A stretch of DNA of 44,609 nt from an uncultured Bacilli bacterium. Its GTDB lineage: Bacteria > Bacillota_I > Bacilli_A > RF39 > UBA660. Below the pieces are notes generated by a model, which saw only the letters and a list, made by a program, of their open reading frames with translations, did no database searches and was not told the origin of the DNA. Positions 1,264 to 31,500 of this stretch are shown one piece after another. The stretch lies in contig CANPZJ010000001.1 in assembly GCA_947588795.1 (NCBI GenBank), positions 1-44,609 of the forward strand. The letters are read 5' to 3'. Position numbers and translations under genes: made by a program. Numbering within the stretch: the first letter of the stretch is position 1; each line of letters starts with the position of its first letter.

Positions 1264-1322
1264 AATATCCTCTTCCTTTCTTTAAAACTATTTTGTTTTC
1301 AGTTTTCTCCTTTCCTACCATA

Positions 1323-1353
1323 AGTATACCCCCCCCCGAAATTGCAAAGTCAA
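1323..1353 (-). promoter_or_regulatory. Sigma-70-like promoter with a G9 tract in the spacer (paralog 1)
   Basis: Minus strand reads TTGACT(1348-1353)-TTGCAATTTC-G9(1329-1337)-TATACT(1323-1328), a 19-nt spacer. It lies about 60 nt upstream of the ATG at 1263. The downstream leader is nearly identical to copy 2. Confidence 0.6.
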
Positions 1354-1386
1354 CCACAATTTTTAGTTTAACAATTTTCTTGACAC

Positions 1387-1424
1387 AAAAAAACATATTA
1401 CTTTCTTTAAAGCAATATGTTTTT
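1387..1424 (-). terminator. Intrinsic terminator after paralog 2
   Basis: AAAAACATATT (1389-1399) pairs with AATATGTTTTT (1414-1424), with A/T runs on both sides. It lies just 3' of the stop at 1447. The same element recurs at 3141-3176. Confidence 0.5.
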
Positions 1425-1446
1425 ACATTTAATTTAACTTTTCAAA

Positions 1447-3018: not shown

Positions 3019-3077
3019 AATATCCTCTTCCTTTCTTTAAAACTATTTTGTTTTCAGTTTTCTCCTTTCCTACTATA

Positions 3078-3106
3078 AGGATACCCCCCCGAATTTATAA
3101 AGTCAA
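3078..3106 (-). promoter_or_regulatory. Sigma-70-like promoter with a G7 tract in the spacer (paralog 2)
   Basis: Minus strand reads TTGACT(3101-3106)-TTATAAATTC-G7(3084-3090)-TATCCT(3078-3083), a 17-nt spacer. Confidence 0.6.
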
Positions 3107-3140
3107 TCGCGTTTTTTCATTTATCATTTTATTTGACATC

Positions 3141-3176
3141 AAAAAACATATTACTTATATCAAGCAATATGTTTTT
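3141..3176 (-). terminator. Intrinsic terminator after paralog 3
   Basis: AAAAAACATATT (3141-3152) pairs with AATATGTTTTT (3166-3176). It lies 3' of the stop at 3199 and is homologous to 1387-1424. Confidence 0.5.
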
Positions 3177-3198
3177 CATATAATTTTAATTTTTTAAA

Positions 3199-4562: not shown

Positions 4563-4592
4563 AGTATACCCCCCCCGAATTTATAAAGTCAA
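4563..4592 (-). promoter_or_regulatory. Sigma-70-like promoter with a G8 tract in the spacer (paralog 3)
   Basis: Minus strand reads TTGACT(4587-4592)-TTATAAATTC-G8(4569-4576)-TATACT(4563-4568), an 18-nt spacer. TATAAT follows immediately. Confidence 0.6.
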
Positions 4593-7295: not shown

Positions 7296-8222
7296 TTAAA
7301 TCCTTTCTACTATTCTAAGTTTAGCACTATGGCTTCTACTATTTATTTTTAACTCATCTTCACTAGGTAAGATAGGTTTTTTATTAATTATTTTAATTTT
7401 TGGTTTATACTCATCTGGTATATCAGGTAATCCTTTAAATATTTCATTAACTTCACTATACTTTTTAAAAGTATTTTTGACAATGCGATCTTCTAAGGAA
7501 TGAAAAGTAATGACTGAAAGTCTACCACCACTCTTTAGTAAATCAATGGCATCTGGTAAAACACTTTCTAATACTGATAGTTCATTATTAACGGCAATTC
7601 TTAATGCCTGAAATATTTTTCTTTCGGGATGAGTTTTATAAAAGTAATTAGCACCAGTAGCACTTTTAATTATATCGACTAATTCTAAAGTTGTCATTAT
7701 TTTTTTTGATTTTCTCACGTTCACTATTTTCTTCGCTATTACTTTTCCTAATTTCTCTTCCCCATACTCATAAAAGTATTTCGTTAACTCTTCTTCTGAT
7801 GCATTATTTACTAAATCACTAGCATTAAACTCCTCATCTTGATTCATTCGCATATCTAAAGGTGCATCTTTCATAAAGGAAAATCCTCTTTTTTCATCAT
7901 CTATTTGGGGTGATGAAAAACCTAAATCAAAGATAATACCATCAACTTTGTCTATCCCTAAATCTTCTAAAGATTTCTTCATATCAACAAAGTTTATCGG
8001 TAATATTTGGTAATTACTACCAATTTTTTTTAGTTCTACTTCAGCATCTTCACGAGCATCTCTATCTTGATCAATACCAATAAGCATTCCATCTTTATCT
8101 AATGCTTCAAGTATTTTCTTACTCATACCAGCATAACCTAAAGTAGCATCAACATAAATACCTTTCGGATTTATATTTAATGAATCAATTATTTCATTTA
8201 AGAGAACACTATAATGCTTCAC
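7296..8222 (-). CDS. rsmH: 16S rRNA (cytosine1402-N4)-methyltransferase RsmH
   Basis: Motifs are HYSVLLNE, DATLGYAGMS and FDLGFSSPQIDD. The track starts at a TTG at 8249. I prefer the GTG at 8220-8222 (VKHYSVLL) because GAGG lies 6 nt upstream. Confidence 0.9.
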   Translation of the reverse strand: MKHYSVLLNEIIDSLNINPKGIYVDATLGYAGMSKKILEALDKDGMLIGIDQDRDAREDAEVELKKIGSNYQILPINFVDMKKSLEDLGIDKVDGIIFDLGFSSPQIDDEKRGFSFMKDAPLDMRMNQDEEFNASDLVNNASEEELTKYFYEYGEEKLGKVIAKKIVNVRKSKKIMTTLELVDIIKSATGANYFYKTHPERKIFQALRIAVNNELSVLESVLPDAIDLLKSGGRLSVITFHSLEDRIVKNTFKKYSEVNEIFKGLPDIPDEYKPKIKIINKKPILPSEDELKINSRSHSAKLRIVERI

Positions 8223-8646
8223 TAGATACCTCAAATAAATTTTCGGCAATTTCTTCTAATTTAGAAGAGTTATCATCCATAAATGATTCAAATAAATCCT
8301 TATCCCATATTTCAATACGGTCATTTACGCCAATCACTACACATTCTTTCGTAAGATTGGCGTAACTAACCAATGGGGAGGTAATATTGATTCGACCCAT
8401 TTTGTCGAATTCGCATACAGAGGCACCGGCAAAAAATGATCTCATAAATGTTCGTGCATCTTTTTTGGTAAAAGGTAATTCATTTAATTTATTAACTACT
8501 TTTTCCCAATCTTCCATCGTATATAGATAAAGGCATTTTTCAAGTCCCCTAGTAACTACAATCTTTGTTCTGTCTTCTCTAAATTTACCAGGTAAAACAA
8601 TTCTGCCCTTTTCATCGATGTTGTGATGATATTCTCCCATGAACAT
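8209..8646 (-). CDS. mraZ: Transcriptional regulator MraZ
   Basis: 145 aa with GEYHHNIDEKGRIVLPGKFRE and a second SpoVT/AbrB-like half (FDKMGRINI). It is the first gene of the dcw cluster. Confidence 0.95.
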   Translation of the reverse strand: MFMGEYHHNIDEKGRIVLPGKFREDRTKIVVTRGLEKCLYLYTMEDWEKVVNKLNELPFTKKDARTFMRSFFAGASVCEFDKMGRINITSPLVSYANLTKECVVIGVNDRIEIWDKDLFESFMDDNSSKLEEIAENLFEVSSEAL

Positions 8647-8655
8647 TTATATCAC

Positions 8656-8690
8656 CCACTTTCTGCCACAGTTATCCACTGTCTACCACT
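8656..8690 (-). promoter_or_regulatory. MraZ operator: four direct GTGG repeats with exact 10-bp phasing
   Basis: Minus strand reads AGTGGTAGAC AGTGGATAAC TGTGGCAGAA AGTGGGTGAT. The plus-strand CCAC(T/A) copies end at 8660, 8670, 8680 and 8690. The array sits immediately upstream of the mraZ ATG, and the last repeat overlaps the SD. Confidence 0.7.
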
Positions 8691-8834
8691 ATTGTACTAT
8701 AAGCTACTTTAAAAGTAAATAAATATTCCCAATTTATTTTTCATTCATAGTAAATTGACATGTTTTTGACAAAAAGCAACTCATAATTGCTTTGGATATT
8801 TAGATGGTAAAAATATAGAATTTTTATTTAAGAA

Positions 8835-8843
8835 TGATATAAT
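8835..8843 (+). promoter_or_regulatory. Extended -10 element (TGATATAAT) for the Abi gene
   Basis: TGnTATAAT lies at 8835-8843, about 24 nt upstream of the ATG at 8867. No good -35 is present. Confidence 0.35.
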
Positions 8844-8866
8844 ATTTCTATAAGAAAGGCTACATT

Positions 8867-10384
8867 ATGGAAACAAATTCAACTAGTAAACTTATCGAAA
8901 TTGCAAAAAATAAAGGAATTATATTTAGAAGAGGAGAAAAAACTTTATTTACAAAATATAGTTATTTTCAAGTTATAAATGCTTATAAGAATCTTTTTAC
9001 TTATGACGAGGATACTATTGATGAAATAAAAAATAACATTGTTAATAAAGTAAAAGTTGAATTTTATAAAACATCATTTCAAATAAAAAATGATGTTTCT
9101 GATGATAAATTGTACGAAACAATATGCAATAAAATATGTAAAAAATATGGATTAAGTGGTCAAACTTTGTTAGAAAAAGAAGAGCAAATAAAAAGTATAA
9201 AATACCACCATCATATCTATAATCAAGGTACATTGTATACTGATTTCGTAAGAATGTATAAATTTGAACATGAATTAAGAATGATGTTATTAAAATATAC
9301 TTTAATAGTAGAAGAAAGTATAAAAAACATTTTTATTTCTTATCTTAATGACAAAAATGCTGAACCAAATTATTTAGTGAATATGGATAATTATAATACC
9401 AATTCTTTAAAATCAAAATCTTTTGATACAATGAAATTGATAATCGATAAATATGATAACCAAAAATCAAAACCAATAAAACGAAAAAGAGATCAACATT
9501 TAATTGTTCCATACTGGATTATTATTAACGAATTAGCGATGAATCAAACATATTATGCAATGGCAAATTTAAATTCAGATGATTCATATAAGATATTTTT
9601 AAGATGTTTAAATTTTTTTACAAATCTTAATTTGTCAGAAGAAAAAAGAGGAAAAACACCAAAACAATTAAATTATGAAAAGAAAATGGTTAACAATTTT
9701 AAAACTTTATTATGTTATTTAGGTGAATTTAGAAATATGTTAGCACATAACCAACCTATATATTGTTATAATGTATTAAATTATAATATTAATGGTAATC
9801 CTAAGTTTGAATATGAATTGCCACTAGTTAATCCTTCATATATAGATAAAACCGGAAATAAAGTAGATATAAAAAAACAACAAATAAATATAATGGGATC
9901 TTTAATGAATAGTTTAAAAGAATATTTTGGCAGTGATAATTTCAACTCAAATAATTCAACTAAATTAGATCTTTCAAAAATAATATATATTTTATATAAA
10001 ATGCTAAAACATATTGATAAAAACACTAATTTTTATTCTGAATTAGTCGAAATATATTCAAAATATAATATAATTTTAAGTAAATCAGTTATTAATGTGG
10101 AAAATCCCAAAAAAATCAACGAAATGAAAAATGCTATTTCAAAATTGTCTACATATGATATGGAAATATCTAGTTTTATTAAAAAAATAGAATCTGGTAA
10201 AGCTTATAAATCAGGTTTAAAGTCTAAAGAAAGACAGTTAAAGGATATAACAAAACAAATAAATACCATATTAAAAAGCATTAATGTCAATGTGGTTAAA
10301 TCTAAATATAAACATTTTCCAGTAGGAAAACGATATACTGAATTTACAGGAATTAATTCAAACTTTTTTAATAATATAAAATAA
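8867..10384 (+). CDS. Abi_2 (AbiD/AbiF-like) abortive-infection protein, HEPN-type, with a long C-terminal extension
   Basis: 505 aa. Family hallmarks are YKFEHELRMMLLKYTLIVEESIKNIF and LGEFRNMLAHNQPIY, where RNMLAH is the RX4H HEPN motif. The last ~170 aa are an unrecognised, K/N-rich, coiled-coil-like extension. Confidence 0.75.
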   Translation: METNSTSKLIEIAKNKGIIFRRGEKTLFTKYSYFQVINAYKNLFTYDEDTIDEIKNNIVNKVKVEFYKTSFQIKNDVSDDKLYETICNKICKKYGLSGQTLLEKEEQIKSIKYHHHIYNQGTLYTDFVRMYKFEHELRMMLLKYTLIVEESIKNIFISYLNDKNAEPNYLVNMDNYNTNSLKSKSFDTMKLIIDKYDNQKSKPIKRKRDQHLIVPYWIIINELAMNQTYYAMANLNSDDSYKIFLRCLNFFTNLNLSEEKRGKTPKQLNYEKKMVNNFKTLLCYLGEFRNMLAHNQPIYCYNVLNYNINGNPKFEYELPLVNPSYIDKTGNKVDIKKQQINIMGSLMNSLKEYFGSDNFNSNNSTKLDLSKIIYILYKMLKHIDKNTNFYSELVEIYSKYNIILSKSVINVENPKKINEMKNAISKLSTYDMEISSFIKKIESGKAYKSGLKSKERQLKDITKQINTILKSINVNVVKSKYKHFPVGKRYTEFTGINSNFFNNIK

Positions 10385-10494
10385 AATGTATAATTGCCCT
10401 AAAAAAAGCATATAAATATAATGGTTACATATTTACAAGCATATTAAAATATGATATTATGAATATGTAATTAAATTCCGTTGTTAATGGGGGA

Positions 10495-10519
10495 AAGAGA
10501 AACTGAGGTTTCTTTTTTC
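10495..10519 (+). terminator. Intrinsic terminator after the Abi gene
   Basis: AGAAAC-TGAG-GTTTCT is followed by T6 (10514-10519). Confidence 0.55.
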
Positions 10520-10565
10520 TTTATATAAATTTTATATAAGAATTACAAAAAATCTCATTTGAAAA

Positions 10566-11297
10566 TTATTTAATTCTTTTTAAAGTTATTGTATGATTAT
10601 TTTGTTTTGCCATTTCTAACAATTTCATTAAATCACACTCATCAGTTTTTAAATCACTTTGAAGCATTTTTATTAAATACATTATAGTATTGCTATCCAT
10701 TGGTAAGATAATATTATTATCAAAATAATTATTTAATACTTCTTGGGCTTTATTAAATAAATCTAAATCTTTAGTAAATGTTGATTCATTTTTATCTTTC
10801 TCACTCTTTAAATTATTTCTTTTAGTATTATGCAAAATATTTTCTATTCTTTGTAATTCATTTAAAGCAATCTTACTATTTCTTTTATCTTTTTCTGCTA
10901 CTTTCATAAACGAATCAGATAAATAAGCAAAACGATAAGCCATTAAGAAATTAATTAAAAACAAAAGAATAGTAATTAATAAAGGAATATTTGTTATAAT
11001 TAAAGCAAAAGATACTAAGGTTAGAAAAGATGATCCTAAAAGATTAGTAATAATTTTTAAATTAATATTTTCATTTTCTTTTAATATATTATTTATTAAT
11101 TCTTTTAATTTATTAACTTGTTCTTGTAGTTTATCTATATCATTATCATAATTTAATAAATCATTTAAAGATGCATACTTAAAAGAAGCAAAATAAAGAT
11201 TACTAGATTTGCTTTCTAATATATTAATAGATTCATATATTTCTTTAAAGCTTTCTTCTGGCTTTAAAAAAAGTAAATTAATAAAATCTTTTAACAT
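10566..11297 (-). CDS. Hypothetical coiled-coil membrane protein (2 central TM helices)
   Basis: I prefer the ATG at 11295-11297 (MLKDFINLL), which has AAGGTGAG upstream. The central hydrophobic hairpin is LGSSFLTLVSFALIITNIPLLITILLFLINFLMAY. No recognisable family. It is convergent with the Abi gene. Confidence 0.6.
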   Translation of the reverse strand: MLKDFINLLFLKPEESFKEIYESINILESKSSNLYFASFKYASLNDLLNYDNDIDKLQEQVNKLKELINNILKENENINLKIITNLLGSSFLTLVSFALIITNIPLLITILLFLINFLMAYRFAYLSDSFMKVAEKDKRNSKIALNELQRIENILHNTKRNNLKSEKDKNESTFTKDLDLFNKAQEVLNNYFDNNIILPMDSNTIMYLIKMLQSDLKTDECDLMKLLEMAKQNNHTITLKRIK

Positions 11298-11340
11298 ATA
11301 ACTCACCTTTAATGAAAAAAGCAACCAAATTGGTTACTAA

Positions 11341-11526
11341 TTAATTTTCTTCTTCAACTTTTAAAACGTTTGAACCTTTATAATTACCACATTTAGTACA
11401 TGCTCTATGTGGTCTTAAAGGAGCACCACATTTTGGACAAGTAGTAACTGAGCCAACTTCTTTTTTTAAATGAGTTCTTCTCATATTCTTTTTAGTTTTA
11501 CTTGTTCTTCTAAAAGGAACTGCCAT
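11341..11526 (-). CDS. rpmF: 50S ribosomal protein L32
   Basis: MAVPFRRTSKTKKNMRRTH... with CPKC...CTKC zinc-ribbon cysteines. Confidence 0.95.
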   Translation of the reverse strand: MAVPFRRTSKTKKNMRRTHLKKEVGSVTTCPKCGAPLRPHRACTKCGNYKGSNVLKVEEEN

Positions 11527-11528
11527 AA

Positions 11529-12005
11529 CTAATCATCACCTTTCAATAAATCTTCTAATTTTTGAAGTCGTGGATCAATATCTTGTGATTTCTCTCCACT
11601 TCCTAATTCCCAACCATTACCTTTAAGATTCTTATTAGTTACAGTAGTATAACTAATGGGAACTTCCAATACAATATTTTGCCATAAAATTTGCTTTAAA
11701 TCAAGTGTATTTTGACTATTTTGATAACTTCCTTCATAATTTTCCACTAAATCTTCTAAATTTTCTTCTATTTTGGTATTTATTTTATACCAAACTTTAT
11801 CGAGAGAGATAGAATCTTCAATTAATATTTGACCAGATACAATAGCATTTAAACTAATATCATTATTACTATTTTCGGAAATAGACCCTTTAATATTTAA
11901 ATCTTTTACCCCATATATTCTTTTATCAGTACCATCATAATCATTTAAAGTTTCATTAAACTCTATGACATTTTTATAATTTAATTCATCTAAGTTAATT
12001 AACAT
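11529..12005 (-). CDS. yceD: YceD/DUF177 family protein (large-subunit rRNA accumulation protein)
   Basis: 158 aa and acidic, with a C-terminal DIDPRLQKLEDLLK motif. The conserved position directly upstream of rpmF supports the call. Confidence 0.8.
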   Translation of the reverse strand: MLINLDELNYKNVIEFNETLNDYDGTDKRIYGVKDLNIKGSISENSNNDISLNAIVSGQILIEDSISLDKVWYKINTKIEENLEDLVENYEGSYQNSQNTLDLKQILWQNIVLEVPISYTTVTNKNLKGNGWELGSGEKSQDIDPRLQKLEDLLKGDD

Positions 12006-12025
12006 AATAATCCCTTTCTTTGATA

Positions 12026-12077
12026 ATTATAAATGCTTTAGGAAATTATTGCAAGAAAGATAAATAAATGCTAATAT
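12026..12077. promoter_or_regulatory. Back-to-back divergent promoters sharing one palindromic -35 hexamer
   Basis: TTGCAA sits at 12049-12054 and is its own reverse complement. On the plus strand it gives TTGCAA-17 nt-TAATAT (12072-12077). On the minus strand it gives TTGCAA-17 nt-TATAAT (12026-12031), serving yceD-rpmF. Confidence 0.5.
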
Positions 12078-12093
12078 TTATTTAGGTGGTATA

Positions 12094-12387
12094 ATGTATC
12101 GATTGAAAATATATTCTTTAAGTAAAGAAGAAAGAAATAAATTAAAAGAAGAATTTTATCAAACAGATATAGGTAAAGATTTAAAATTAAGATTAACTAG
12201 ATTACTTATTATAGGTATCTTGGGCATATTATTTAGTATTTATCTATTTATTAGTAATACATCTATCTTTGATATTATAACTGGTATTATTTTAGTAATA
12301 GCATCTTTAGTATTTATCATCGCAAGTTTTAGATTAAGAATTACTAAATTAAATGATTATTTAGTAAAAAGCAAGAAAAAGAAATAA
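12094..12387 (+). CDS. Small 2-TM membrane protein, unknown function
   Basis: 97 aa. GGTGG lies upstream of the ATG. There are two hydrophobic helices. A hairpin plus T-run follows at about 12375-12410. Confidence 0.6.
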   Translation: MYRLKIYSLSKEERNKLKEEFYQTDIGKDLKLRLTRLLIIGILGILFSIYLFISNTSIFDIITGIILVIASLVFIIASFRLRITKLNDYLVKSKKKK

Positions 12388-12427
12388 GTTACCAAATAAT
12401 TTATTTCTTTTTTAAATACAATTTAAT

Positions 12428-12802
12428 ATGAAGGATTACTTACGCGATTTAAAATTATTAAAAGAAGAAGATATTATTTGGTATATATATTATTTTATTG
12501 TAACATTTGCCATTATTGCTAATAGTTTTGAAGAAAAATATATTTATGAAGGTAATAAAAAAGATCGCTTAAATGGTCGTAAAATAAATGTTGTTCTTTT
12601 AATAATTGCCCTACTTATTTATATTTATTATGTAATTATTGCTATTCAAGATTTAAATTTAAGTAAAAGTAAAGATGCAAATAGACAAAGAATTGCGATG
12701 GAAAGATTAATTACAACTTTAGTATTTTTAGTTGGTGGTGCCTTATCTTTATATACTGAGCTAGATGATAATGCTGGTGATGTAGATTTAGCTATCTTCT
12801 AA
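12428..12802 (+). CDS. Small 3-TM membrane protein, unknown function
   Basis: 124 aa with three hydrophobic segments. No family recognised. Confidence 0.55.
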   Translation: MKDYLRDLKLLKEEDIIWYIYYFIVTFAIIANSFEEKYIYEGNKKDRLNGRKINVVLLIIALLIYIYYVIIAIQDLNLSKSKDANRQRIAMERLITTLVFLVGGALSLYTELDDNAGDVDLAIF

Positions 12803-13936
12803 CTAACATTATAATATATTTTATTTTTTTCTAAAGGAACATTTTTTAATTTAAATAATTCCGATACACTCATTACTTGATAACCTTTACTATATAAAAT
12901 AGGTAGTAATTCTTCAATAGCAGAAGCACTACTATCATAAGCATCATGAAATAAAATAATATCACCATCTTTAATATTATCAATTACATAATTAACTAAA
13001 TAATCACTACTACGATAACGCCAGTCATTAGTGTCTAGACTCCATAATATGTATGATGCATCAAGTAAAGTTTGTTGACTTTCATTTATAGAACCATATG
13101 GTGGTCTTATTAAATTCATATTCTCGTTAAATATGCTTTGATAAAATTCATTCATATTTTTAAAATCATTTATTACTTCTTCATCACTAAGTTTTTTCAT
13201 ATTTTGATGATGATAAGTATGACTACCTATTTCATTACCTAAATTTTTAATATTTATAAGTAAATCTTTATTATAGACTGCTCTTTCGCCAACAATAAAA
13301 AAAGTTGCATGAAAATGATTATCTTGAAGTGATGCTAAAATACGATCAGTTTTATTTTTATTAGGACTATCATCAAAAGTAATGGCGACACTTTTCTTCG
13401 CATTAGTATAATCATATCCAGATTCATTTTGATAATCTTTATCTAAAGATGCGGTAAAATTAATACAATCTTTTATTTCATTATAATTTACTTTTAGATA
13501 TAGAAGCTCTTCTACTTGTGGGTTAGTTTCGACATTATTAAAATAAATTACTAATTCATTATCTCTTAAAATATAACTTTTATTTATGTTTTCATTTATT
13601 AAAGTATCGGCGACAAATTTCGGATATTTTAATATTATAATCTTCTATTTTTTCTTCTTTAATCAAATCTTCTATTTTAAGTTCATTTTCGGTTCCATAT
13701 TCATATATTTTACTTAAATAATTATCATAACTATCTTTATATAAATAACTAGTTATACTTTCGCCTAGAGTATTTTTTTCGACTAAAACATAATTATTAT
13801 CATTCTCATAAAAACATAAATCTACCTTAGATTCTTCTTTTTTATTACTAAATATACTAATAGTTACTATATTTACAATAACCATTAAAAATATTATAAA
13901 AATAGCTATTTTTAAATATAAACTCTTTCTTTCCAT
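12799..13936 (-). pseudogene. Polysaccharide deacetylase (NodB/CE4 domain) split by a 1-nt frameshift
   Basis: ORF 13592-13936 encodes the TM-anchored N-terminus. A second frame is open from 13644 to 12799 with no start codon until 13200. That frame carries all five NodB motifs: TFDDSP, HTYHH, RPPYG, DTNDW and ILFHD. Both frames are open only across 13592-13644. Confidence 0.7.
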
Positions 13937-14022
13937 ACCACATCATTTTTAGTATGGTTATATTTTAAAATTTCATTTACAAAATAAGTTATTTTTTTTA
14001 TAATTTAAAGAGAGGTAATGTT

Positions 14023-15193: not shown

Positions 15194-15278
15194 TGGTGCA
15201 CCTGAAGGGACTTGAACCCCCACGGATATTTCCACTAGATCCTAAGTCTAGCGCGTCTACCAGTTCCGCCACAGGTGC
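15194..15278 (-). tRNA. tRNA-Leu (anticodon UAG)
   Basis: Reverse complement is GCACCTGTGGCGGAACTGGTAGACGCGCTAGACTTAGGATCTAGTGGAAATATCCGTGGGGGTTCAAGTCCCTTCAGGTGCACCA. It has a long variable arm, a CTTAGGA anticodon loop and an encoded CCA. Confidence 0.9.
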
Positions 15279-15285
15279 ACTTAAA

Positions 15286-15362
15286 TGGTGGACCTCGTAG
15301 GACTCGAACCTACGACCGCCCGGTTATGAGCCGGATGCTCTAACCAACTGAGCTAGAGGTCC
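15286..15362 (-). tRNA. tRNA with CAU anticodon (Met by anticodon; body resembles lysidine-type tRNA-Ile2)
   Basis: Reverse complement is GGACCTCTAGCTCAGTTGGTTAGAGCATCCGGCTCATAACCGGGCGGTCGTAGGTTCGAGTCCTACGAGGTCCACCA. It forms a cloverleaf with a CTCATAA loop and an encoded CCA. Confidence 0.9.
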
Positions 15363-24718: not shown

Positions 24719-25960
24719 TTATTTTTCAAATAATATAGAATAAAAATATTCATTATTAAACTTAGAAATTCCTATACCTATCTTAGTAAATTTTTCATTA
24801 AAAATATTTTGACAATCCACATCACCATAATCACAATAAAAAACTAGTGACTTATAAACTTGTTGCATGTCTTTTCCACCTCTAGAAGAAGACTCTGACA
24901 TAACGCTACCATGTTCTATTCCTAAATCATCTAAAACTGTAGTATAATATTTACCATTTGGTCTATCATGGTTATAATCATTCATATATCCTACTTCCAT
25001 TGCTCTTATAGAAGCTCCTAAAGATAAACTATTATCTAATTTATATTCATATAGACTATTAGCTTTTCTATTTTCATTAATAATATTAAATAATTGATTT
25101 ATTTCTTGTTTATAAGTTGTCAAATTACTACTTGCTTCACTACGCATTTCTTTAGCGTCATCCCTAAATTTAGATGGGTCATAATAAGTTTGCCTAGAAT
25201 CTTCAATTTTTTCTTCTGTTCCATCTTTTCTAGTAGTAATTTTATACTTTACAATCGTATATTGTTCTATTCCATATTTATATTCTTTTCTATCAATCTC
25301 TTCTTCTTCATATTTAGTTGCTGTATCAGTTGTTGTTGAATTATTATTAGTAGTAGTATTCTTATTTGTGGTATTAGTTGTTTTTTTCTTATTAACTTTT
25401 AAAGTAAAATTTTCTTCTGTTTTATTATTACTACTATCATTAGCAACATATTTTAATTTATAAGTTCCTTCTTTATTAAAATCATATTCACCTTCAACTA
25501 TTACTTCTATTTTTTCTTTTGAATTATCACTAGCTTTAACTTTTTTTAATAAATTTATTTTAGTTCCCACAGTTGTACTTAATTCTTTAGAAAATTCTAT
25601 TATTGGCTTAGTTGTATCGACTATATTTATTTTAAAAGGATATTCTTTTTCTTCTTCATTTTCTAAATATTTAACAATTAATTCTTTTTCTCCTAAAGAA
25701 GTAGTATCTATTTTATCATCAATATTTATAATTTCGATATCATTATTTTCTTCTAACAAATCTGTAATTTTTACTTCACTATTAATTTCAACATTTAAAT
25801 TTTCTTTTAATTTAATAACTATTTTTTCTTGTTTATTATCTTCTACCTTTTGTTTATCTTTAGAATTATTAAATAAATTAACCCCTAGTACAACAACCGT
25901 CGTTAATCCTAAAACTCCTAAAATTATTCCACTAATTATTTTAATCATTTTTTCTTTCAT
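24719..25960 (-). CDS. Membrane-anchored protein: Ig-like (DUF5011-type) domain plus degenerate CAP/SCP-like domain
   Basis: 413 aa with AGAGAGG upstream of the ATG. DTTKPIIEF...GTYKLKYVANDSSNNKTEENFTLKV is the Ig-like module. The C-terminal INENRKAN...NHDRPNG...IGIGIS resembles YkwD/CAP. Domain calls are tentative. Confidence 0.75.
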   Translation of the reverse strand: MKEKMIKIISGIILGVLGLTTVVVLGVNLFNNSKDKQKVEDNKQEKIVIKLKENLNVEINSEVKITDLLEENNDIEIINIDDKIDTTSLGEKELIVKYLENEEEKEYPFKINIVDTTKPIIEFSKELSTTVGTKINLLKKVKASDNSKEKIEVIVEGEYDFNKEGTYKLKYVANDSSNNKTEENFTLKVNKKKTTNTTNKNTTTNNNSTTTDTATKYEEEEIDRKEYKYGIEQYTIVKYKITTRKDGTEEKIEDSRQTYYDPSKFRDDAKEMRSEASSNLTTYKQEINQLFNIINENRKANSLYEYKLDNSLSLGASIRAMEVGYMNDYNHDRPNGKYYTTVLDDLGIEHGSVMSESSSRGGKDMQQVYKSLVFYCDYGDVDCQNIFNEKFTKIGIGISKFNNEYFYSILFEK

Positions 25961-26018
25961 AAATAAACCTCTCTTTTAATTATATTAAATCGTTATTTAA
26001 TTTAATAATACATAGTAT

Positions 26019-26783
26019 TTAGTCACTTATTTTCTTGGCCACTACAACAAAGCGACCATTTTCTCTTGAATATTCACAAGTTGATAAAGTAATTAATTTA
26101 TCACCATATTTGGCATCTACTCCAGTATCAAATTTTGATGCCTTTTTGGCATTACTGACAAAATCATTATATGCTTCTTCACTTTCGGCATTAACAAAAT
26201 AATAATAACGAAAAACATTAGTCTCATTTGAATAATATACTCTACTATAGAATATTGCTAATATTTCATAAGTAGCATCTTCTTCTAAAGTAGTTAAATT
26301 AATCGTTTTATGTTCTTCATAAAAATCTTTTTTCGCATATTTAATTAATGGTTCAAACATTAAACCATATTTATTTCGATGACCATATATTTGTAAATTA
26401 TCACTTTCATTTATTTTGACATCTTTATCAAAATAAATGGCTCCCGCTGATGATTTTTCATTTTTATAATTATGGTTTAAATAATAGTCATTATCCGTTG
26501 TTTCTACTACTGGATAATTAATATCTGTTCCTTCTATTTCTAACCAAGCTACGACATTTTCATAACTTTTATGTAACTCTTTTAATTTATTAATTTTTTG
26601 TTCATGAATATCTTCTTTTTGATCTATATCATGAAATATATTAGATACATCTTTGTAAGTATTTTTATCATTACTTGCATTAGTTAATTCTACTACTATA
26701 TATGATATGCCTAGAATTATAATTAGTAACAATATAATAATTATAATAATTTTTATCGGTTTTTTGAGTTTTCTCTTATGCAT
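26019..26783 (-). CDS. srtB: Class B sortase
   Basis: 254 aa with an N-terminal TM. Motifs are VAWLEIEGTDINYPVVETTDNDYYLNH, IYGHRNKYGLMFEPLIKY, the catalytic LITLSTCEY and a downstream RFVVVAK. Confidence 0.9.
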   Translation of the reverse strand: MHKRKLKKPIKIIIIIILLLIIILGISYIVVELTNASNDKNTYKDVSNIFHDIDQKEDIHEQKINKLKELHKSYENVVAWLEIEGTDINYPVVETTDNDYYLNHNYKNEKSSAGAIYFDKDVKINESDNLQIYGHRNKYGLMFEPLIKYAKKDFYEEHKTINLTTLEEDATYEILAIFYSRVYYSNETNVFRYYYFVNAESEEAYNDFVSNAKKASKFDTGVDAKYGDKLITLSTCEYSRENGRFVVVAKKISD

Positions 26784-26796
26784 AATATTCCTCTAT

Positions 26797-26833
26797 CTAA
26801 AAAGTAGAATTAAGTTTTAAACTTAATTCTACT
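26797..26833 (-). terminator. Hairpin plus T5 between the third TPxLG paralog and srtB (partial terminator/attenuator?)
   Basis: AGTAGAATTAAGTT pairs with AACTTAATTCTACT (26803-26833), a 13-14 bp perfect AT-rich stem. TTTTTAG follows on the minus strand. The srtB SD (AGAGGAA) begins about 12 nt later. Confidence 0.5.
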
Positions 26834-26844
26834 AACTATCTATC

Positions 26845-27285
26845 TTAGTCTTTCTTTAAAACTTTGATTAAACATACACCGGCACATAATACAAGTAAAC
26901 TAGCTAGTCCAATATAACTTGGTACTCCTAAAGTTGGTGTACTATCAGCTTTAACATTGCTTAAGGCAATTACAAATGGTGATAATTCATCTACTTCTAC
27001 TGTTACTTTACCATCTATTATTTCTTTTTCAAAAGTTTCTATTGTACCATTACTTTTTTTATGAAGTACTGTCGCCTTTTCTCCATTATATTTACTATCT
27101 ACATTAAATGATACATTTAATTTTCCTTCATAATCACCATTTAATTTTACTTCATATGATCCAAGTACTTTTTTACCTTCTAATTTTTGATTTAACTCTT
27201 TATAAACATCAGAATTTGTATCTAATTTTTCAACTGCTAAAGTACTATCAATATCTTTTTTACCAACAACTGCTACACCATTATT
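26845..27285 (-). repeat. ~440-bp conserved 3' module, copy 3 of 3 (direct repeat)
   Basis: About 90% nucleotide identity by eye with 27900-28340 and 29171-29611. Boundaries are approximate. Confidence 0.7.
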
Positions 27286-27882
27286 AGTATCTTCTACACT
27301 AGTTTCATTTAAGACATATTTCCTTGTTAATGAAATTCTATAGACTTCTGTTCCTTCAGCATCATAACCAATGTATTCACCAGTACTTTCAGGTTTTAAC
27401 GCAAAGCTTTGTTCATCATAAACATTATTAACATTATAATGTTCTTTTACATCACCATACTCTGCATGATAATAAATTAATGGTGTATTACCACCAAAAC
27501 CATCAGGAAATTCATCTTTATCATATGTTACATCACCAGACACAACTCTGACAACATCATCTATAAACATCTTATGATTAAGATTGAATGTAATACTATT
27601 CTCACCAAATTCTTTTTTAAATTTATCAAATAATTCGTTACCAGCATAAATTGTTTTACCATCTATTAAAGCCTTATATACATCATAATCATTTATCTTG
27701 ATTAATAAAGTATTATCTTCAATAGAATAATCAAATACATTTCCTTTATAATTATCACTTGCCCATTCAAAATCCAATAAAGTTTTACCATCAACCTCAA
27801 GAGCTTTAACACTAGGTGTTACTACTACAAGCATTGCTAGCATAAAAATAGGAAATATTAATTTTTTTAAAATATTTTTCAT
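26845..27882 (-). CDS. Secreted surface protein, TPxLG-tail family, paralog C
   Basis: 345 aa with signal peptide MKNILKKLIFPIFMLAMLVVVTPSVKA. The variable N-terminal domain is followed by a conserved 146-aa C-terminus ending VDELSPFVIALSNVKADSTPTLGVPSYIGLASLLVLCAGVCLIKVLKKD. Confidence 0.9.
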   Translation of the reverse strand: MKNILKKLIFPIFMLAMLVVVTPSVKALEVDGKTLLDFEWASDNYKGNVFDYSIEDNTLLIKINDYDVYKALIDGKTIYAGNELFDKFKKEFGENSITFNLNHKMFIDDVVRVVSGDVTYDKDEFPDGFGGNTPLIYYHAEYGDVKEHYNVNNVYDEQSFALKPESTGEYIGYDAEGTEVYRISLTRKYVLNETSVEDTNNGVAVVGKKDIDSTLAVEKLDTNSDVYKELNQKLEGKKVLGSYEVKLNGDYEGKLNVSFNVDSKYNGEKATVLHKKSNGTIETFEKEIIDGKVTVEVDELSPFVIALSNVKADSTPTLGVPSYIGLASLLVLCAGVCLIKVLKKD

Positions 27883-27899
27883 AATTATCTTCTCCTAAA

Positions 27900-28340
27900 T
27901 TAGTCTTTCTTTAAAACTTTAATTAAGCATACACCAGCGCATAATACAAGTAAGCTTGCTAGTCCTACATAACTTGGTACTCCTAAGATTGGTGTACCAT
28001 CGGCTTTGACATTACTTAGGGCAATTACAAATGGTGATAATTCATCTACTTCTACTGTTACTTTGCCATCTGTTATTACTTTTTCAAATGTTTCAACTGT
28101 ACCATTACTTTTCTTATGTAATACTGTTGCTTTTTGGCCATTATATTTACTATCTACATTAAATGATACATTTAATTTTCCTTCATAACTACCATTTAAT
28201 TTCACTTCAAAAGCTCCAAGAACTTTTTTACCTTCTAATCTTTCATTTAATTCTTTATAAATATCTGCATTTGTATCTAACTTTTCGACTGTTAATGAAG
28301 AATCATTATCAATTGCACCACTAACACTAACATTTTTTTC
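27900..28340 (-). repeat. ~440-bp conserved 3' module, copy 2 of 3
   Basis: See 26845-27285. Confidence 0.7.
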
Positions 28341-29159
28341 TTCATTAGTAACAGTCGTACCAGCATATTCCATTCTTATTTTTAAAGTTGTATAACCACT
28401 ATTATCTCTTTCACGAACAATTCCAGTATCAGCCCATAAATAAGCATCTGTTTCTTTATAATTTCTAATCAAAAATTCAGAATTTATATAAGATGCAATT
28501 GGTGCTCCAACAGGAAAACCTGATCTCCAACTATTATTTTCTTCATCATAAGCAAATAAAATTCCAGAATAATCTAAATAAACAAAATTACCTTTACTAT
28601 CTTGACTATGAAAATCATCATCAACACTATATGATCTAGTTCCTGATTGATAAGTCACTAAGTCATCTGTGATTGGTGCTATAGTTATGTCTTTTATATC
28701 ATCTTGAAAATATATTTTAATCATTAGGCTAACAACTCCATCATTTACATATGGCACTAATTTTTGCCATAATTCTGGAGTTTCTTTTTCAGTTATATCT
28801 TTTTTATTCACTATTGCTTTATATAAATCATAATCTTTTACTTTAACTACAATCTCGTTATTTGCATAAGTAAAATCAAATATATTATTTTGATGAGCAA
28901 CATTATAACCAACTGTAATATAATCTTCAGGTTTTAATTCTGTATTACCTTTATATATCGGATAAATAAGTTCACCTTGATAATTTTCGTGATCTTCAGA
29001 TTCCTTATATTTTTCATATTCTTCATTAAACTTTTTATAACTTTCTAAAACTTTATCTTTATCAGTAAACATTTCTGTTTTCATTTCTGCCATAGTTACT
29101 ACTGGTAATAACATAATAGCAAATACTATAGCAAAACATATTTTATTAATTTTTTTCAT
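27900..29159 (-). CDS. Secreted surface protein, TPxLG-tail family, paralog B
   Basis: 419 aa with a signal peptide ending VTMA. The conserved C-terminus ends ...NVKADGTPILGVPSYVGLASLLVLCAGVCLIKVLKKD. Confidence 0.9.
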   Translation of the reverse strand: MKKINKICFAIVFAIMLLPVVTMAEMKTEMFTDKDKVLESYKKFNEEYEKYKESEDHENYQGELIYPIYKGNTELKPEDYITVGYNVAHQNNIFDFTYANNEIVVKVKDYDLYKAIVNKKDITEKETPELWQKLVPYVNDGVVSLMIKIYFQDDIKDITIAPITDDLVTYQSGTRSYSVDDDFHSQDSKGNFVYLDYSGILFAYDEENNSWRSGFPVGAPIASYINSEFLIRNYKETDAYLWADTGIVRERDNSGYTTLKIRMEYAGTTVTNEEKNVSVSGAIDNDSSLTVEKLDTNADIYKELNERLEGKKVLGAFEVKLNGSYEGKLNVSFNVDSKYNGQKATVLHKKSNGTVETFEKVITDGKVTVEVDELSPFVIALSNVKADGTPILGVPSYVGLASLLVLCAGVCLIKVLKKD

Positions 29160-29170
29160 AGCTTTTTCTC

Positions 29171-29611
29171 CTAATCTTTCTTTAAAACTTTAATTAAACA
29201 TACACTGGCACATAACACAAGTAAACTAGCTAGTCCTACATAGCTTGGTACTCCTAAAGTTGGTGTACTATCTTCTTTGACATCACTTAATGCAATTACA
29301 AATGGTGATAATTCATCTACTTCTACTGTTACTTTACCATCTGTTATTACCTTTTCAAATGTTTCAATTGTACCATTACTTTTCTTATGAAGTACTGTTG
29401 CCTTTTCTCCATTGTATTTACTATCTACATTAAATGATACATTTAATTTTCCTTCATATTCACCATTTAATTTTACTTCAAAGGCTCCAAGTAATTTTTT
29501 GCCTTCTAATCTTCCTACTAATTCTTTATATACATCTGCTTTTGTATCTAACTTTTCTACTGTTAAAGTAGTATCCATATTTTTTTTACCTGTAACTGAT
29601 ACACCATTATT
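29171..29611 (-). repeat. ~440-bp conserved 3' module, copy 1 of 3
   Basis: See 26845-27285. Confidence 0.7.
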
Positions 29612-30355
29612 TTCATCTGCTACACTTGATTCACCAAGTTCATAACTAAATTTTATTTTAGAAGTAAATACTTCATTGCCATTTGCATCAAGGCCAACAA
29701 ACTTATAAGTATAGCCCCAGTTGTAATCCCATTCTCCGCTCTTTTGTAATGGTGTCCAAACAACAGTCGTTTTACCATCAACAGAATCATACCAGGCATC
29801 AAATAAAACACCAGCTCTATCGGAATCATAATAATATTTACCATTTTCATCTTGTTTAATATTTATACCACCATTTAAATCAAAAACACCATTATCTTCT
29901 TCTTTGCCATCTTGGTTATATAATAAAAATGAAATTTTTGTAACATTATCAGGAAAATAAATATGCGGATGTAACCCTAGTGTCCCTTGAACTTCGGTTC
30001 TATCTTCATCTTCAATTGGAATTTCTTTTAAATATTTAGATAATTTATTATAAAGTGGTGTTCCTTCTCTTATTAAAGTATCAGTTTTTGAATCAGAGCC
30101 ATTAATACTTTCTTGCCAAGTTTTGTCTACTAACACTAGCTCATTGTAAAGATCAATATCTTTAACTTTTAACACTACTTCACCATTTTCATAAGTATAA
30201 TCAAATACTTCGCCTAATCCTTGATATGGTATTAAAGTAATAAATTCCTTTGAGTCAATTTCCTCTGCTCTAACCATTGTTGGTACCATAAATAACATCA
30301 TTGTTAAACATAATATTGTTGAAAATATACTTGTTAATTTTTTCAATTTTCTCAT
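29171..30355 (-). CDS. Secreted surface protein, TPxLG-tail family, paralog A (first gene of the block)
   Basis: 394 aa with a signal peptide ending MVRA. The conserved C-terminus ends ...DVKEDSTPTLGVPSYVGLASLLVLCASVCLIKVLKKD. GGAG sits only 1 nt from the ATG at 30355, so the in-frame TTG at 30344-30346 (MKKLTS...) is an alternative start. Confidence 0.85.
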   Translation of the reverse strand: MRKLKKLTSIFSTILCLTMMLFMVPTMVRAEEIDSKEFITLIPYQGLGEVFDYTYENGEVVLKVKDIDLYNELVLVDKTWQESINGSDSKTDTLIREGTPLYNKLSKYLKEIPIEDEDRTEVQGTLGLHPHIYFPDNVTKISFLLYNQDGKEEDNGVFDLNGGINIKQDENGKYYYDSDRAGVLFDAWYDSVDGKTTVVWTPLQKSGEWDYNWGYTYKFVGLDANGNEVFTSKIKFSYELGESSVADENNGVSVTGKKNMDTTLTVEKLDTKADVYKELVGRLEGKKLLGAFEVKLNGEYEGKLNVSFNVDSKYNGEKATVLHKKSNGTIETFEKVITDGKVTVEVDELSPFVIALSDVKEDSTPTLGVPSYVGLASLLVLCASVCLIKVLKKD

Positions 30356-30374
30356 TCTCCATTTCTATAAGATT

Positions 30375-30404
30375 ATTATAATATACCCCCCCCGAAAAAA
30401 TCAA
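30375..30404 (-). promoter_or_regulatory. Promoter with a G8 tract in the spacer, heading the TPxLG/sortase block
   Basis: Minus strand reads TTGATT(30399-30404)-TTTTC-G8(30386-30393)-TATAT-TATAAT(30375-30380), an 18-nt spacer. The core TTC-G(n)-TATA is shared with the three promoters at 1323-4592. Confidence 0.55.
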
Positions 30405-30472
30405 TATACAAATTATTGTAAATGGGAATTGTAAAAAATTGCCAAGAATATTATTGTAAATATATTAAATAA

Positions 30473-30501
30473 TAAAAAGATTACCAATTTCTTGATAATC
30501 T
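30473..30501 (-). terminator. Intrinsic terminator of the upstream membrane-protein gene
   Basis: Minus strand reads AGATTATCAAG-AAAT-TGGTAATCT (one mismatch) followed by TTTTTATTATTT. It insulates the G8 promoter from read-through. Confidence 0.5.
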
Positions 30502-30537
30502 AAACAAAGCAATTTGTATTTATTATTTATAGATATT

Positions 30538-31500
30538 TTATTTTTTCGTTGACTCTTTCCATTCTTCATTATTTGATTTTTCAAATGAATTAGTACGAAT
30601 ATTTAGTTTGTAATAGTTATATTTATTTGTTTTTCGATCAACAATATATAAAATGACACTATCATCATCAATCCATTTATGATCAGTCATTTTAAAACCA
30701 TATCTTTCTAATTTAACTTTAGTTAATAATTCTTCTTTTAATTTACTATAATCATTTTCTTCACTAATATTATAAGTTTTAGATAATTCTTCCAAAGTAT
30801 TAAGATAACTTATTTTTAAAAATTCAAAATTATCTGTAATTTTTTCTTTGCTTCTAATTTCATCATAAGAATCATCATCATAAACAAACCAAGATGTCAA
30901 AGTATTTTTAGCCTGAGGACTATCTTTAAAAGCGGTATCAGCTGCAAAAACAAATGTTGTAGCAAAAATGAAACCAAATACATATTCCAAAAATAATATT
31001 GGAAAAGAATAGCCAAAGCCTTCATCTCTTGTATAATTAATAATATTAATAACTAGTAAAGGAATATATATTCCTGAAAGAATTCGACATATCCAACCAT
31101 TATAAGTAAAATTCAATAAGATTCCATGCGGTAATTTAATTAAAGAATAAACTACAAATGCTATAATTATAAGACATTCTACTATTATAACAAATTTATT
31201 GCGATCTTTCTTAACTACTTTATTTAATTCATAATCAGTTTTAGGCTCTTTATTTTTCTTAAATAAAGATTTAATTTTAGCAAAAATAGCTTTAGGAGTT
31301 ATTTCAATATTTTGATCCGTAAAAATATACATAATAAATTTACCTAATTCCATTAAAGATACTAGCATAACTATTAAAGCTAAAGCATATCCCGAAATAT
31401 GAGCCATTTCTAATAAAATATAATAAACTAAAAAGCCAATTCCTCCTGTAACAAAACCCACTATTAATAAAAAGATAAACATTCCTGTTGTTCCCATCAT
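30538..31500 (-). CDS. Polytopic membrane protein with a C-terminal soluble domain, unknown function
   Basis: 320 aa with AGGAG 7 nt upstream of the ATG at 31500. There are about 6 TM segments. It is in frame with the decayed zinc-ribbon leader upstream. Confidence 0.75.
   Translation of the reverse strand: MMGTTGMFIFLLIVGFVTGGIGFLVYYILLEMAHISGYALALIVMLVSLMELGKFIMYIFTDQNIEITPKAIFAKIKSLFKKNKEPKTDYELNKVVKKDRNKFVIIVECLIIIAFVVYSLIKLPHGILLNFTYNGWICRILSGIYIPLLVINIINYTRDEGFGYSFPILFLEYVFGFIFATTFVFAADTAFKDSPQAKNTLTSWFVYDDDSYDEIRSKEKITDNFEFLKISYLNTLEELSKTYNISEENDYSKLKEELLTKVKLERYGFKMTDHKWIDDDSVILYIVDRKTNKYNYYKLNIRTNSFEKSNNEEWKESTKK

Follow-up and report, generated by a model that had tools for sequence, protein, structure and literature searches.

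A poly-G tract in the promoter spacer of a predicted sortase-anchored surface-protein operon of uncultured gut Bacilli: a probable slippage-type switch

Genes and features of the locus

The window, as the whole stretch of analyzed DNA is called here, is a complete 44.6-kb contig (44,609 nt, about 26% G+C) from a metagenome-assembled genome of an uncultured Bacilli bacterium, whose nearest relatives are rabbit-gut genome bins of uncultured Bacilli ("Lapin"). It also carries mraZ, mraW, miaA and genes for SpoIIP and a PASTA-domain penicillin-binding protein, by which the host is taken to be a walled, probably spore-forming Firmicute. On its minus strand lie three paralogous genes followed by srtB (Table 1). 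The C-terminal part of about 150 aa is nearly identical in the three products while the N-terminal domains are divergent, and all three end in (S/G)TP(T/I)LG, then a hydrophobic segment, then KKD. The family is rare, with 16 homologs of the gene 1 protein among 5.8 billion proteins; searches of Pfam, NCBIfam and PDB sequences gave no match for gene 1, and genes 2 and 3 had no Pfam match. Exact-protein look-ups found no record for gene 1 at either length (394 or 391 aa), for gene 2, for srtB or for the 320-aa gene upstream. Since gaps of only 11 and 17 nt separate the paralogs, they are very probably read from one transcript. The view that a single promoter tract gates at least these three genes, put forward in a preliminary description of the locus, is thus well supported by gene packing.

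Predicted terminators lie on both sides of this unit, each a stable hairpin with a U tract that is conserved in relatives, one after the preceding gene and one after gene 3. The hairpin upstream of the promoter is contained in a 91-nt stretch (30455-30545) that folds at -16.2 kcal/mol (z -3.64), and its sequence is conserved in four related assemblies (L004 and L006-L008). It is the predicted terminator of the 320-aa membrane-protein gene and as such would insulate the promoter, which bears out the terminator that had been placed there at the outset. The perfect 14-bp hairpin downstream of gene 3 is kept in four to five related loci, among them L005, L006, L007 and L201, and is probably a terminator or attenuator of the three-gene unit; conservation of this hairpin with its U5 points to at least partial termination before srtB. 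No promoter of its own was recognizable for srtB in the 61-nt gap upstream of it, which holds just the hairpin and a ribosome-binding site, so that the srtB transcript may come from read-through alone. By such read-through the G8 tract described below may gate srtB and 10 kb of downstream DNA and, since srtB would then have no promoter apart from it, this one tract could control anchoring of the whole substrate set.

The products encoded past srtB are CAP/Ig-like, Flg_new (the Listeria-Bacteroides repeat, Pfam PF09479), CHAP/cadherin-like and Cna_B proteins. In relatives a separate poly-G promoter, TTGACT-AAAAAATAT(C/T)-G7/8-TATAAT, stands beyond srtB ahead of a Flg_new-domain gene, which speaks against gating of the downstream genes by read-through; it is absent from the window. 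A second family of surface proteins (1-4497), 26 kb from the TPxLG block, carries the sorting signal NPKTG. The paralogs adjoining srtB, its candidate substrates, carry (S/G)TP(T/I)LG, which to our knowledge is not among the described SrtB motifs.

Table 1. Features of the window, all on the minus strand
Feature	Coordinates	Strand	Details
Upstream terminator-like hairpin	30467..30501 (stem 30501-30478)	-	RNA fold: 10-bp stem, GAAA loop, U-rich tail
-35 hexamer TTGATT	30399..30404	-	Consensus promoter scan; whole promoter 10/12 matches
G8 homopolymeric tract	30386..30393	-	Proposed slippage-prone element within 18-nt spacer
-10 hexamer TATAAT	30375..30380	-	Invariant in 9/9 sequences of alignment A1
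Ribosome-binding site GGAGA	30356..30360	-	GGAG(A) invariant in alignment A1
Gene 1, 391 aa	29171..30346	-	Signal peptide, variable N-terminal domain, conserved C-terminal domain, TPTLG, transmembrane segment, KKD
Gene 2, 419-aa paralog	27900..29159	-	TPILG signal; 11 nt after gene 1
Gene 3, 345-aa paralog	26845..27882	-	TPTLG signal; 17 nt after gene 2; identical to P0009
Perfect 14-bp hairpin with U5	26803..26833	-	Between gene 3 and srtB ribosome-binding site; centroid -14.5 kcal/mol, z -3.0
srtB, class B sortase gene	26019..26783	-	TIGR03064 174.5 bits (cut-off 153.75); Pfam Sortase
G8 tract, TTGACT-N10-G8-TATACT	4569..4576	-	Spacer 18; promoter of 432-aa NPKTG surface-protein gene
G7 tract, TTGACT-N10-G7-TATCCT	3084..3090	-	Spacer 17; upstream of 523-aa NPKTG protein gene
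G9 tract, TTGACT-N10-G9-TATACT	1329..1337	-	Spacer 19; upstream of NPKTG gene running off the window

Anatomy of the promoter and its G8 tract

The minus strand from 30404 to 30375 reads TTGATT-TTTTC-G8-TATAT-TATAAT, or TTGATT-TTTTC-GGGGGGGG-TATAT-TATAAT with the tract in full, exactly as first described, with a spacer of 18 nt. This is the sole 10/12 promoter match between the upstream hairpin and the start of gene 1. Of the 12 orthologous assemblies, 10 have TTGATT or TTGACA at the position aligned with the -35 hexamer; L002 has GTGACA there and L001 a degenerate sequence. The distance from the -10 hexamer to the ribosome-binding site is fixed across the nine sequences of alignment A1, and the position of the start is likewise invariant in orthologs. 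A run of at least seven G's thus lies between hexamers that were assigned by consensus matches and conservation, and the start of transcription downstream of them is predicted. Promoter-like hexamer pairs are no commoner in the window (60) than in shuffles (64), so that the hexamers by themselves carry little weight. The G run, rather than the hexamers, is the outstanding feature of this promoter.

The start codon of gene 1 needs revision. It had been placed at ATG 30355, giving a gene of 29171-30355 that begins 20-30 nt from the promoter, but that codon is only 1 nt past GGAG, and relatives carry ATG where the window has TTG 30346. Called genes of the relatives begin at this position, by which the product is assigned 391 aa; this puts 28 nt between the end of the -10 hexamer and the start codon. 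The Rfam search of the window returned only two tRNAs and no RNA element near the G8 tract. The word TTTACAAT occurs three times upstream of the -35 hexamer; it was considered as a regulator site and set aside, being not enriched in the window (10 occurrences, 11 expected) and only partly conserved in L006.

Placement of long G runs in the window

Only four runs of seven or more G's occur in the window, all on the minus strand (Table 1). They contain eight overlapping G7 words, as compared to 0.31 in shuffles, and TTC-G(7-9)-TAT occurs four times as compared to 0.00. The lengths of G/C runs are bimodal, being 5, 5, 5, 5 and 6, then 7, 8, 8 and 9. Intergenic DNA makes up 9.2% of the window, yet it holds all four long runs (p about 7e-5), and in every case the G's are on the sense strand of the next gene, 39-71 nt ahead of its start codon. 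The spacer equals 10 + n in 4/4 promoters, n being the tract length, which gives 17, 18 and 19 nt. Long G runs are therefore placed non-randomly by each of these counts.

Three of the four tracts belong to the NPKTG family, in which each heads a monocistronic gene behind a separate terminator hairpin. No similarity is detectable between the TPxLG and NPKTG families (BLASTP E 0.34), in agreement with the earlier observation that the two families are otherwise unrelated. The N-terminal domains of the surface proteins behind the tracts are mosaic and variable.

Orthologous promoters and tract-length variation

The orthologous promoter was compared in 12 assemblies, namely the window and 11 others reached through contigs encoding protein homologs (Table 2). 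Wherever it is present the G run is pure, with a length of G7, G8 or G9, while its flanks and its place in the spacer drift and the -35/-10 distance ranges over 15-19 nt. The tract is therefore not invariant among orthologs, a point on which the preliminary description had made its proposal depend. Ortholog proteins are 46-94% identical, and the tract has nonetheless been kept uninterrupted. The 3' flank of the tract is AATTATAAT in L004; the distal promoter of L001 reads TTGACT-C-G8-TAATTTGCCT-TATAAT, in which the tract nearly abuts the -35 hexamer (1 nt); in L201 and L204 the tract abuts the -10 hexamer. Since the tract persists as flanks and position change, conservation concerns the presence of a G run inside the spacer and not the word TTC-Gn-TATA. 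In the tract-free ortholog TTGGAACG replaces the G run and the spacer remains at 18 nt. The spacers of 15-16 nt in some orthologs may reflect OFF states or an imperfect assignment of the hexamers.

Table 2. Orthologous promoters, from the -35 hexamer to the -10 hexamer
Assembly	-35	5' filler (nt)	Tract	3' filler (nt)	Spacer (nt)
Window	TTGATT	5	G8	5	18
L006, L008, L009	TTGATT	5	G8	5	18
L007	TTGATT	5	G9	5	19
L001, proximal	TCGGAC (degenerate)	6	G7	5	18
L001, distal (extra promoter upstream; -10 TATAAT)	TTGACT	1	G8	10	19
L004	TTGACA	7	G8	3	18
L201	TTGACA	7	G9	0	16
L204, L205	TTGACA	7	G8	0	15
L002, L003	(G/T)TGACA		none (18 nt)		18

Length variation was seen between near-identical assemblies. L006-L009, from four samples, are 99.88-99.99% identical over 7.7-8.5 kb, and their sole 1-nt indel is at the promoter tract, which is G8 in three assemblies and G9 in L007; over this stretch, six A7 runs and another G8 run do not vary. 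This close-strain evidence is one indel event in consensus assemblies of about 4x coverage, in which a homopolymer miscall is possible. L201 (G9) differs likewise from L204 and L205 (G8), with identical flanks. At the level of consensus assemblies, tract length thus varies among close relatives while the flanks stay constant. The other tract-bearing promoters behave alike: the NPKTG promoters have G9, G7 and G8 in the window and G8 in L144, L168 and L198, and the promoter of the Flg_new-domain (PF09479) gene has G7 in L197 and G8 elsewhere. Since close relatives differ by one or two bases in tract length, an on/off or volume switch is the most likely function.

Scans beyond the locus

The pattern TTGAYT-N(1-9)-WTC-G7-N(0-2)-TATAHT was scanned against one genome per species in 185,579 species, giving 78 sites at 71 loci. 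The optional positions after G7 were G's, forming pure G7-9 runs, in 63 of the 78 sites, as compared to about 14% expected if these positions were free. Hits cluster in Lapin Bacilli bins (up to five per genome), human-gut (Hadza) Bacilli bins, Candidatus Caccovivens and other gut Clostridia. The modal spacer in the low-G+C Bacilli of the scan is 18 nt, against a canonical optimum of 17. Genes behind tracts of at least seven G's in these low-G+C Bacilli almost all encode NPKTG, NPQTG, TPxLG, Flg_new-domain or prepilin-like proteins or secreted proteins of the tail-collar-like kind. Exported-looking products, with signal-peptide-like or transmembrane-like N termini, were found, over all taxa, for 38 of 54 distinct downstream ORFs and for 48 of 176 control ORFs taken from the same loci (odds ratio 6.3, p 2e-8; p 9e-4 after paralog families were collapsed by eye). 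Signal peptides, TPxLG or NPKTG sorting signals, mosaic variable N-terminal domains and this export enrichment are what contingency genes display. In the JGI metagenomes, a collection without this lineage, the locus-specific pattern had no match and the NPKTG-promoter pattern had just two unrelated chance matches. The generic pattern TTC-G7-N(0-3)-TATA gave at least 120 matches in viral contigs and was uninformative.

Proposed mechanism and alternative explanations

The mechanism that probably applies, and that we favor, is that the hypermutable G8 tract in a sigma-A-type spacer acts as a slippage-driven switch or grader of the three-gene sortase-anchored surface-protein operon. Slipped-strand mispairing during replication would add or remove a G; this would alter the -35/-10 distance among 17, 18 and 19 nt (10 + n) and would switch or grade, reversibly, transcription of the TPxLG operon, which is insulated by the predicted terminator upstream and the conserved hairpin downstream. 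The optimal spacer of sigma-A promoters is 17 +/- 1 nt, by which G7 and G8 would count as ON states and G9 as low or OFF. G8, with 18 nt, is probably an expressing state, since the tract-free ortholog has its spacer fixed at 18 nt. In the window, tract 1 (G9) would then be low and tracts 2-4 (G7, G8 and G8) expressing. The three NPKTG genes 26 kb away, each with its own tract and terminator, would add combinatorial variation of the cell surface alongside the TPxLG operon; each unit, flanked by predicted terminators, would be independent of the others, an arrangement that combinatorial switching needs. Runs of poly-G/C are generally taken as candidates for phase variation from a length of seven upward (PMC6321876). 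Some points count against the proposal: the modal spacer of 18 nt departs from the canonical 17, some orthologs stand at 15-16 nt, and mutation of a G8 run, if the host is a repair-proficient Firmicute, may be too slow for true phase variation. Overall, the tract very probably makes this a phase-variable or tunable promoter of the slippage type, a known mechanism in a new lineage.

The strongest competitor, although unlikely, is that the G tract forms part of the promoter architecture and stays fixed or evolves slowly, as a stiff GC-rich spacer segment or a tuning knob; it would set promoter strength and drift by about 1 nt over evolutionary time, with no reversible high-frequency switching inside a population. 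Most assemblies and species have G8 as their consensus length, just one indel separates the near-identical strains, and the vpma T tract at a Mycoplasma agalactiae promoter, which has no role in variation, is a precedent showing that a homopolymer beside a promoter is not automatically a switch (PMC2268961). On the other hand, pure G7-9 at many unrelated promoters in a genome of about 26% G+C needs a selective reason; zero point substitutions occur in any tract while the flanks diverge, and length is the sole variation, including that between contigs 99.9% identical. The preliminary description had offered selection on the tract itself or a common DNA-binding factor. Selection on the tract fits the data. 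The factor, for which TTC-Gn-TATA would be a shared binding site co-regulating both surface-protein families, is suggested by the TTC 5' and TAT 3' common to the four window tracts and by a 5' C that is frequent at other loci; it is very improbable, however, as the core is not conserved in orthologs. The motif is broken in L004 (TTC-G8-AATT), in the distal promoter of L001 (CTC-G8-TAAT) and in the Flg_new-gene promoter of L204/L205 (ATT-G8), where T stands in place of the 5' C; the tract lies variously next to the -35 hexamer, centrally or next to the -10 hexamer; most promoters owe the 3' TATA to the -10 hexamer beside it; and proteins are unlikely to target a site whose length varies.

Two further explanations bear on the tract less directly. 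An imperfect 31-nt inverted repeat (30313-30343 / 30433-30463, 74% complementary) flanks the promoter, which could suggest an inverton in which the G tract is incidental. This reading was rejected as scarcely credible: promoter orientation is the same in 12/12 assemblies, no recombinase domain was found in the neighboring genes scanned, and seven such repeat pairs per 500 nt of this AT-rich DNA are about what chance gives. Finally, the window is a contig of a metagenome-assembled genome, and two-colour Illumina chemistry gives poly-G artefacts at read ends, by which the tract could have arisen in sequencing or assembly, or be a run due to chance. The probability of this is negligible, since the tract is internal with unique sequence on both sides, recurs in the orthologous promoter of 10 independent assemblies that represent different samples and species, and is not expected by chance in shuffles.

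A broader proposal goes beyond the slippage-driven switch at this one operon. The scan hits could represent an undescribed set of poly-G phase-variable promoters (-35, filler, G7-10, -10) before exported-protein genes across uncultured gut Firmicute lineages, and the switch at the present locus might also throttle srtB; we advance this tentatively, as somewhat short of probable. Behind the candidate promoters, rabbit-gut Bacilli have NPKTG and TPxLG sortase B substrates together with Flg_new-domain proteins; a roe-deer Bacilli genome has prepilin-like proteins, Hadza human-gut Bacilli have tail-collar-like proteins, and Candidatus Caccovivens has lipoproteins. If this were true, spore-forming commensals with a cell wall would possess a combinatorial surface switch like that of Mycoplasma. 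If the tracts switch, wall-anchored surface proteins would vary stochastically and combinatorially, which would matter for evasion of immunity (IgA) and phages, for how strains persist and for the reading of consensus sequences from metagenomes. The significance would rise with confirmation of the lineage-wide promoter pattern at read level.

Comparison with known systems

Phase variation by promoter repeats is textbook knowledge for Neisseria, Haemophilus, Campylobacter and mycoplasmas, while we know of hardly any description for Gram-positive gut commensals. Literature searches brought up no description of promoter-borne poly-G tracts from uncultured Bacilli or Clostridia of the gut, nor of any tied to class B sortase substrates. 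In Neisseria meningitidis, the promoter spacer of porA (poly-G) and opc (poly-C) contains or adjoins a G/C homopolymer, and expression of the surface protein is graded, as a volume control, with each 1-nt change in spacing, a mechanism that matches the one proposed here; TA repeats occupy the promoter spacer of hifA/B in Haemophilus influenzae. These hosts are Gram-negative pathogens with tracts of 9-14 nt, whereas the present tracts are 7-9 nt long and belong to an uncultured Gram-positive gut commensal.

Among low-G+C bacteria, homopolymer indels in the -35/-10 spacer turn transcription ON and OFF for vlp of Mycoplasma hyorhinis, maa2 of M. arthritidis and vmm of M. mycoides (PMC2268961). 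The likeness to vlp is close, with a homopolymer in the spacer, several paralogous surface-protein genes each with its own tract, by which surface variation becomes combinatorial, and a host of low-G+C Bacilli lineage. The Mycoplasma tract is poly-A, however, and the present one is poly-G; the products there are lipoproteins of wall-less cells, while those here are predicted wall-anchored sortase B substrates of a walled, probably spore-forming host; and, in contrast to the vlp type, one tract here heads a three-gene operon.

The nearest case in gut Gram-positive bacteria is the intragenic G tract of Bifidobacterium breve, and the nearest in Firmicutes is the R28 T tract of Streptococcus pyogenes. 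Sortase-dependent pilus clusters of B. breve UCC2003 contain an intragenic G tract that undergoes replication slippage (PMC9187656). This system resembles the present one in being a gut Gram-positive commensal with a G tract and sortase-dependent surface structures, but its tract lies within the coding sequence as a translational frameshift switch, whereas a tract in the promoter spacer would act on transcription. In S. pyogenes M28, the intergenic T tract that separates Spy1336/R28 from Spy1337 is polymorphic in natural populations, and 1-nt indels in it alter how much transcript of a wall-anchored protein is made (PMC7098570). Both systems thus combine a Firmicute host, an intergenic homopolymer and a cell-wall-anchored surface protein; the S. 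pyogenes T tract lies between divergent genes, one of them a regulator, and is a single locus rather than a family-wide promoter design.

Recurrence and possible mobility of the poly-G promoter

The design TTGAYT...TC-G7-9-TATAAT recurs in many metagenome-assembled gut Clostridia and Bacilli genomes (loci L130-L200 of genome_contigs, from a scan of one genome per species), and at many of the Clostridia sites the nominal spacer is just 12-16 nt. In Candidatus Caccovivens, for instance, it precedes a multi-copy family of lipoproteins; in human-gut (Hadza) Bacilli the genes behind it encode tail-collar-like proteins that are secreted, and in isolate RGIG4813 they are prepilin-like. Exported proteins are enriched among the downstream ORFs (38/54 versus 48/176). 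In L164, from a rabbit-gut Bacilli bin of 22% G+C, the promoter TTGACT-CATTC-G9-TATATTATAATAATCCTATAAG is near-identical to that of the TPxLG operon, whose -35/-10 spacer holds a G8 run (tract 4); the L164 gene is glycosyltransferase-like and non-secreted. A tract-4-like promoter before such a gene suggests mobility of the promoter module itself from gene to gene. In all loci read, the tract is a G run and never a C run when viewed on the coding strand of the gene that follows, and its 5' neighbor is usually C; promoter mechanics or replication-strand bias could lie behind the G-only tracts.

In relatives, the interval between the class B sortase gene srtB and a gene with a Flg_new domain holds a second promoter of the poly-G type, TTGACT-AAAAAATAT(C/T)-G7/8-TATAAT. 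At this site the window has an extra CAP/Ig-like gene, and the G tract after srtB is absent from the segment compared with the relatives' promoter. In the related assembly L001, two poly-G promoters stand in tandem before a single gene, the ortholog of the first TPxLG gene.

Coordinates of features in the window and in related loci
Feature	Location	Strand	Detail
Three TTTACAAT copies	window 30415-30460	-	within 46 nt
Imperfect inverted repeat	window 30313-30343 / 30433-30463		31 nt, 74% complementary
TPxLG paralogs	window 26845-30346	-
Gene 3/srtB gap	window 26784-26844		61 nt
Segment after srtB	window 25961-26018		no G tract
CAP/Ig-like gene	window 24719-25960
NPKTG family	window 1-4497
Second poly-G promoter tract	L006 7478-7485
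Second poly-G promoter tract	L007 5177-5184
Second poly-G promoter tract	L190 3255-3262
Second poly-G promoter tract	L197 124-130
Second poly-G promoter tract	L204/L205 2317-2324
Tandem promoters	L001 1563-1665		distal, TTGACT-C-G8-N10-TATAAT; proximal, G7 tract, -35 degenerate (TCGGAC)
Tract-4-like promoter	L164 3495-3560
Low-G+C stretch	window 8000-14000		22-25% G+C; several ORFs without family matches
Abi_2 (abortive-infection-like) gene	window 8867-10384	+	inside the low-G+C stretch
Two tRNA genes	window 15197-15362	-

Repeats at the promoter and mosaic surface-protein genes

Directly upstream of the -35 element of the tract 4 promoter, TTTACAAT occurs three times. This triplet may be a binding site for a regulator or act as an UP-like element; its copies are only partially conserved in the related assembly L006, and the motif is not enriched window-wide (10 copies against 11 expected). 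The promoter is also bracketed by an imperfect inverted repeat, which is probably due to chance: the enclosed segment is inverted in none of the assemblies, and the neighboring genes scanned showed no recombinase domain.

When window 29171-30501 was compared with L006, L201, L001 and L004, identity to L006 was 93% at the nucleotide level across the promoter, 5'UTR and signal peptide and 95% in the C-terminal domain including the sorting signal, while some 650 nt encoding the N-terminal domain were unalignable. The TPxLG genes are mosaics, in which N-domain cassettes appear to have been swapped between conserved ends.

Sortase expression and sorting signals

The gap between gene 3 and srtB contains nothing besides a ribosome-binding site and a conserved hairpin of 14 bp followed by U5. 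No srtB promoter is recognizable there, so that sortase expression may rely on transcription reading through from the poly-G promoter. Beside this class B sortase, the three paralogs end in a (S/G)TP(T/I)LG sorting signal with no NPxTx-type motif, and NPKTG is the C-terminal end of the unlinked family. The sortase may, judging from these motifs, recognize a new substrate motif or serve two classes of substrate.
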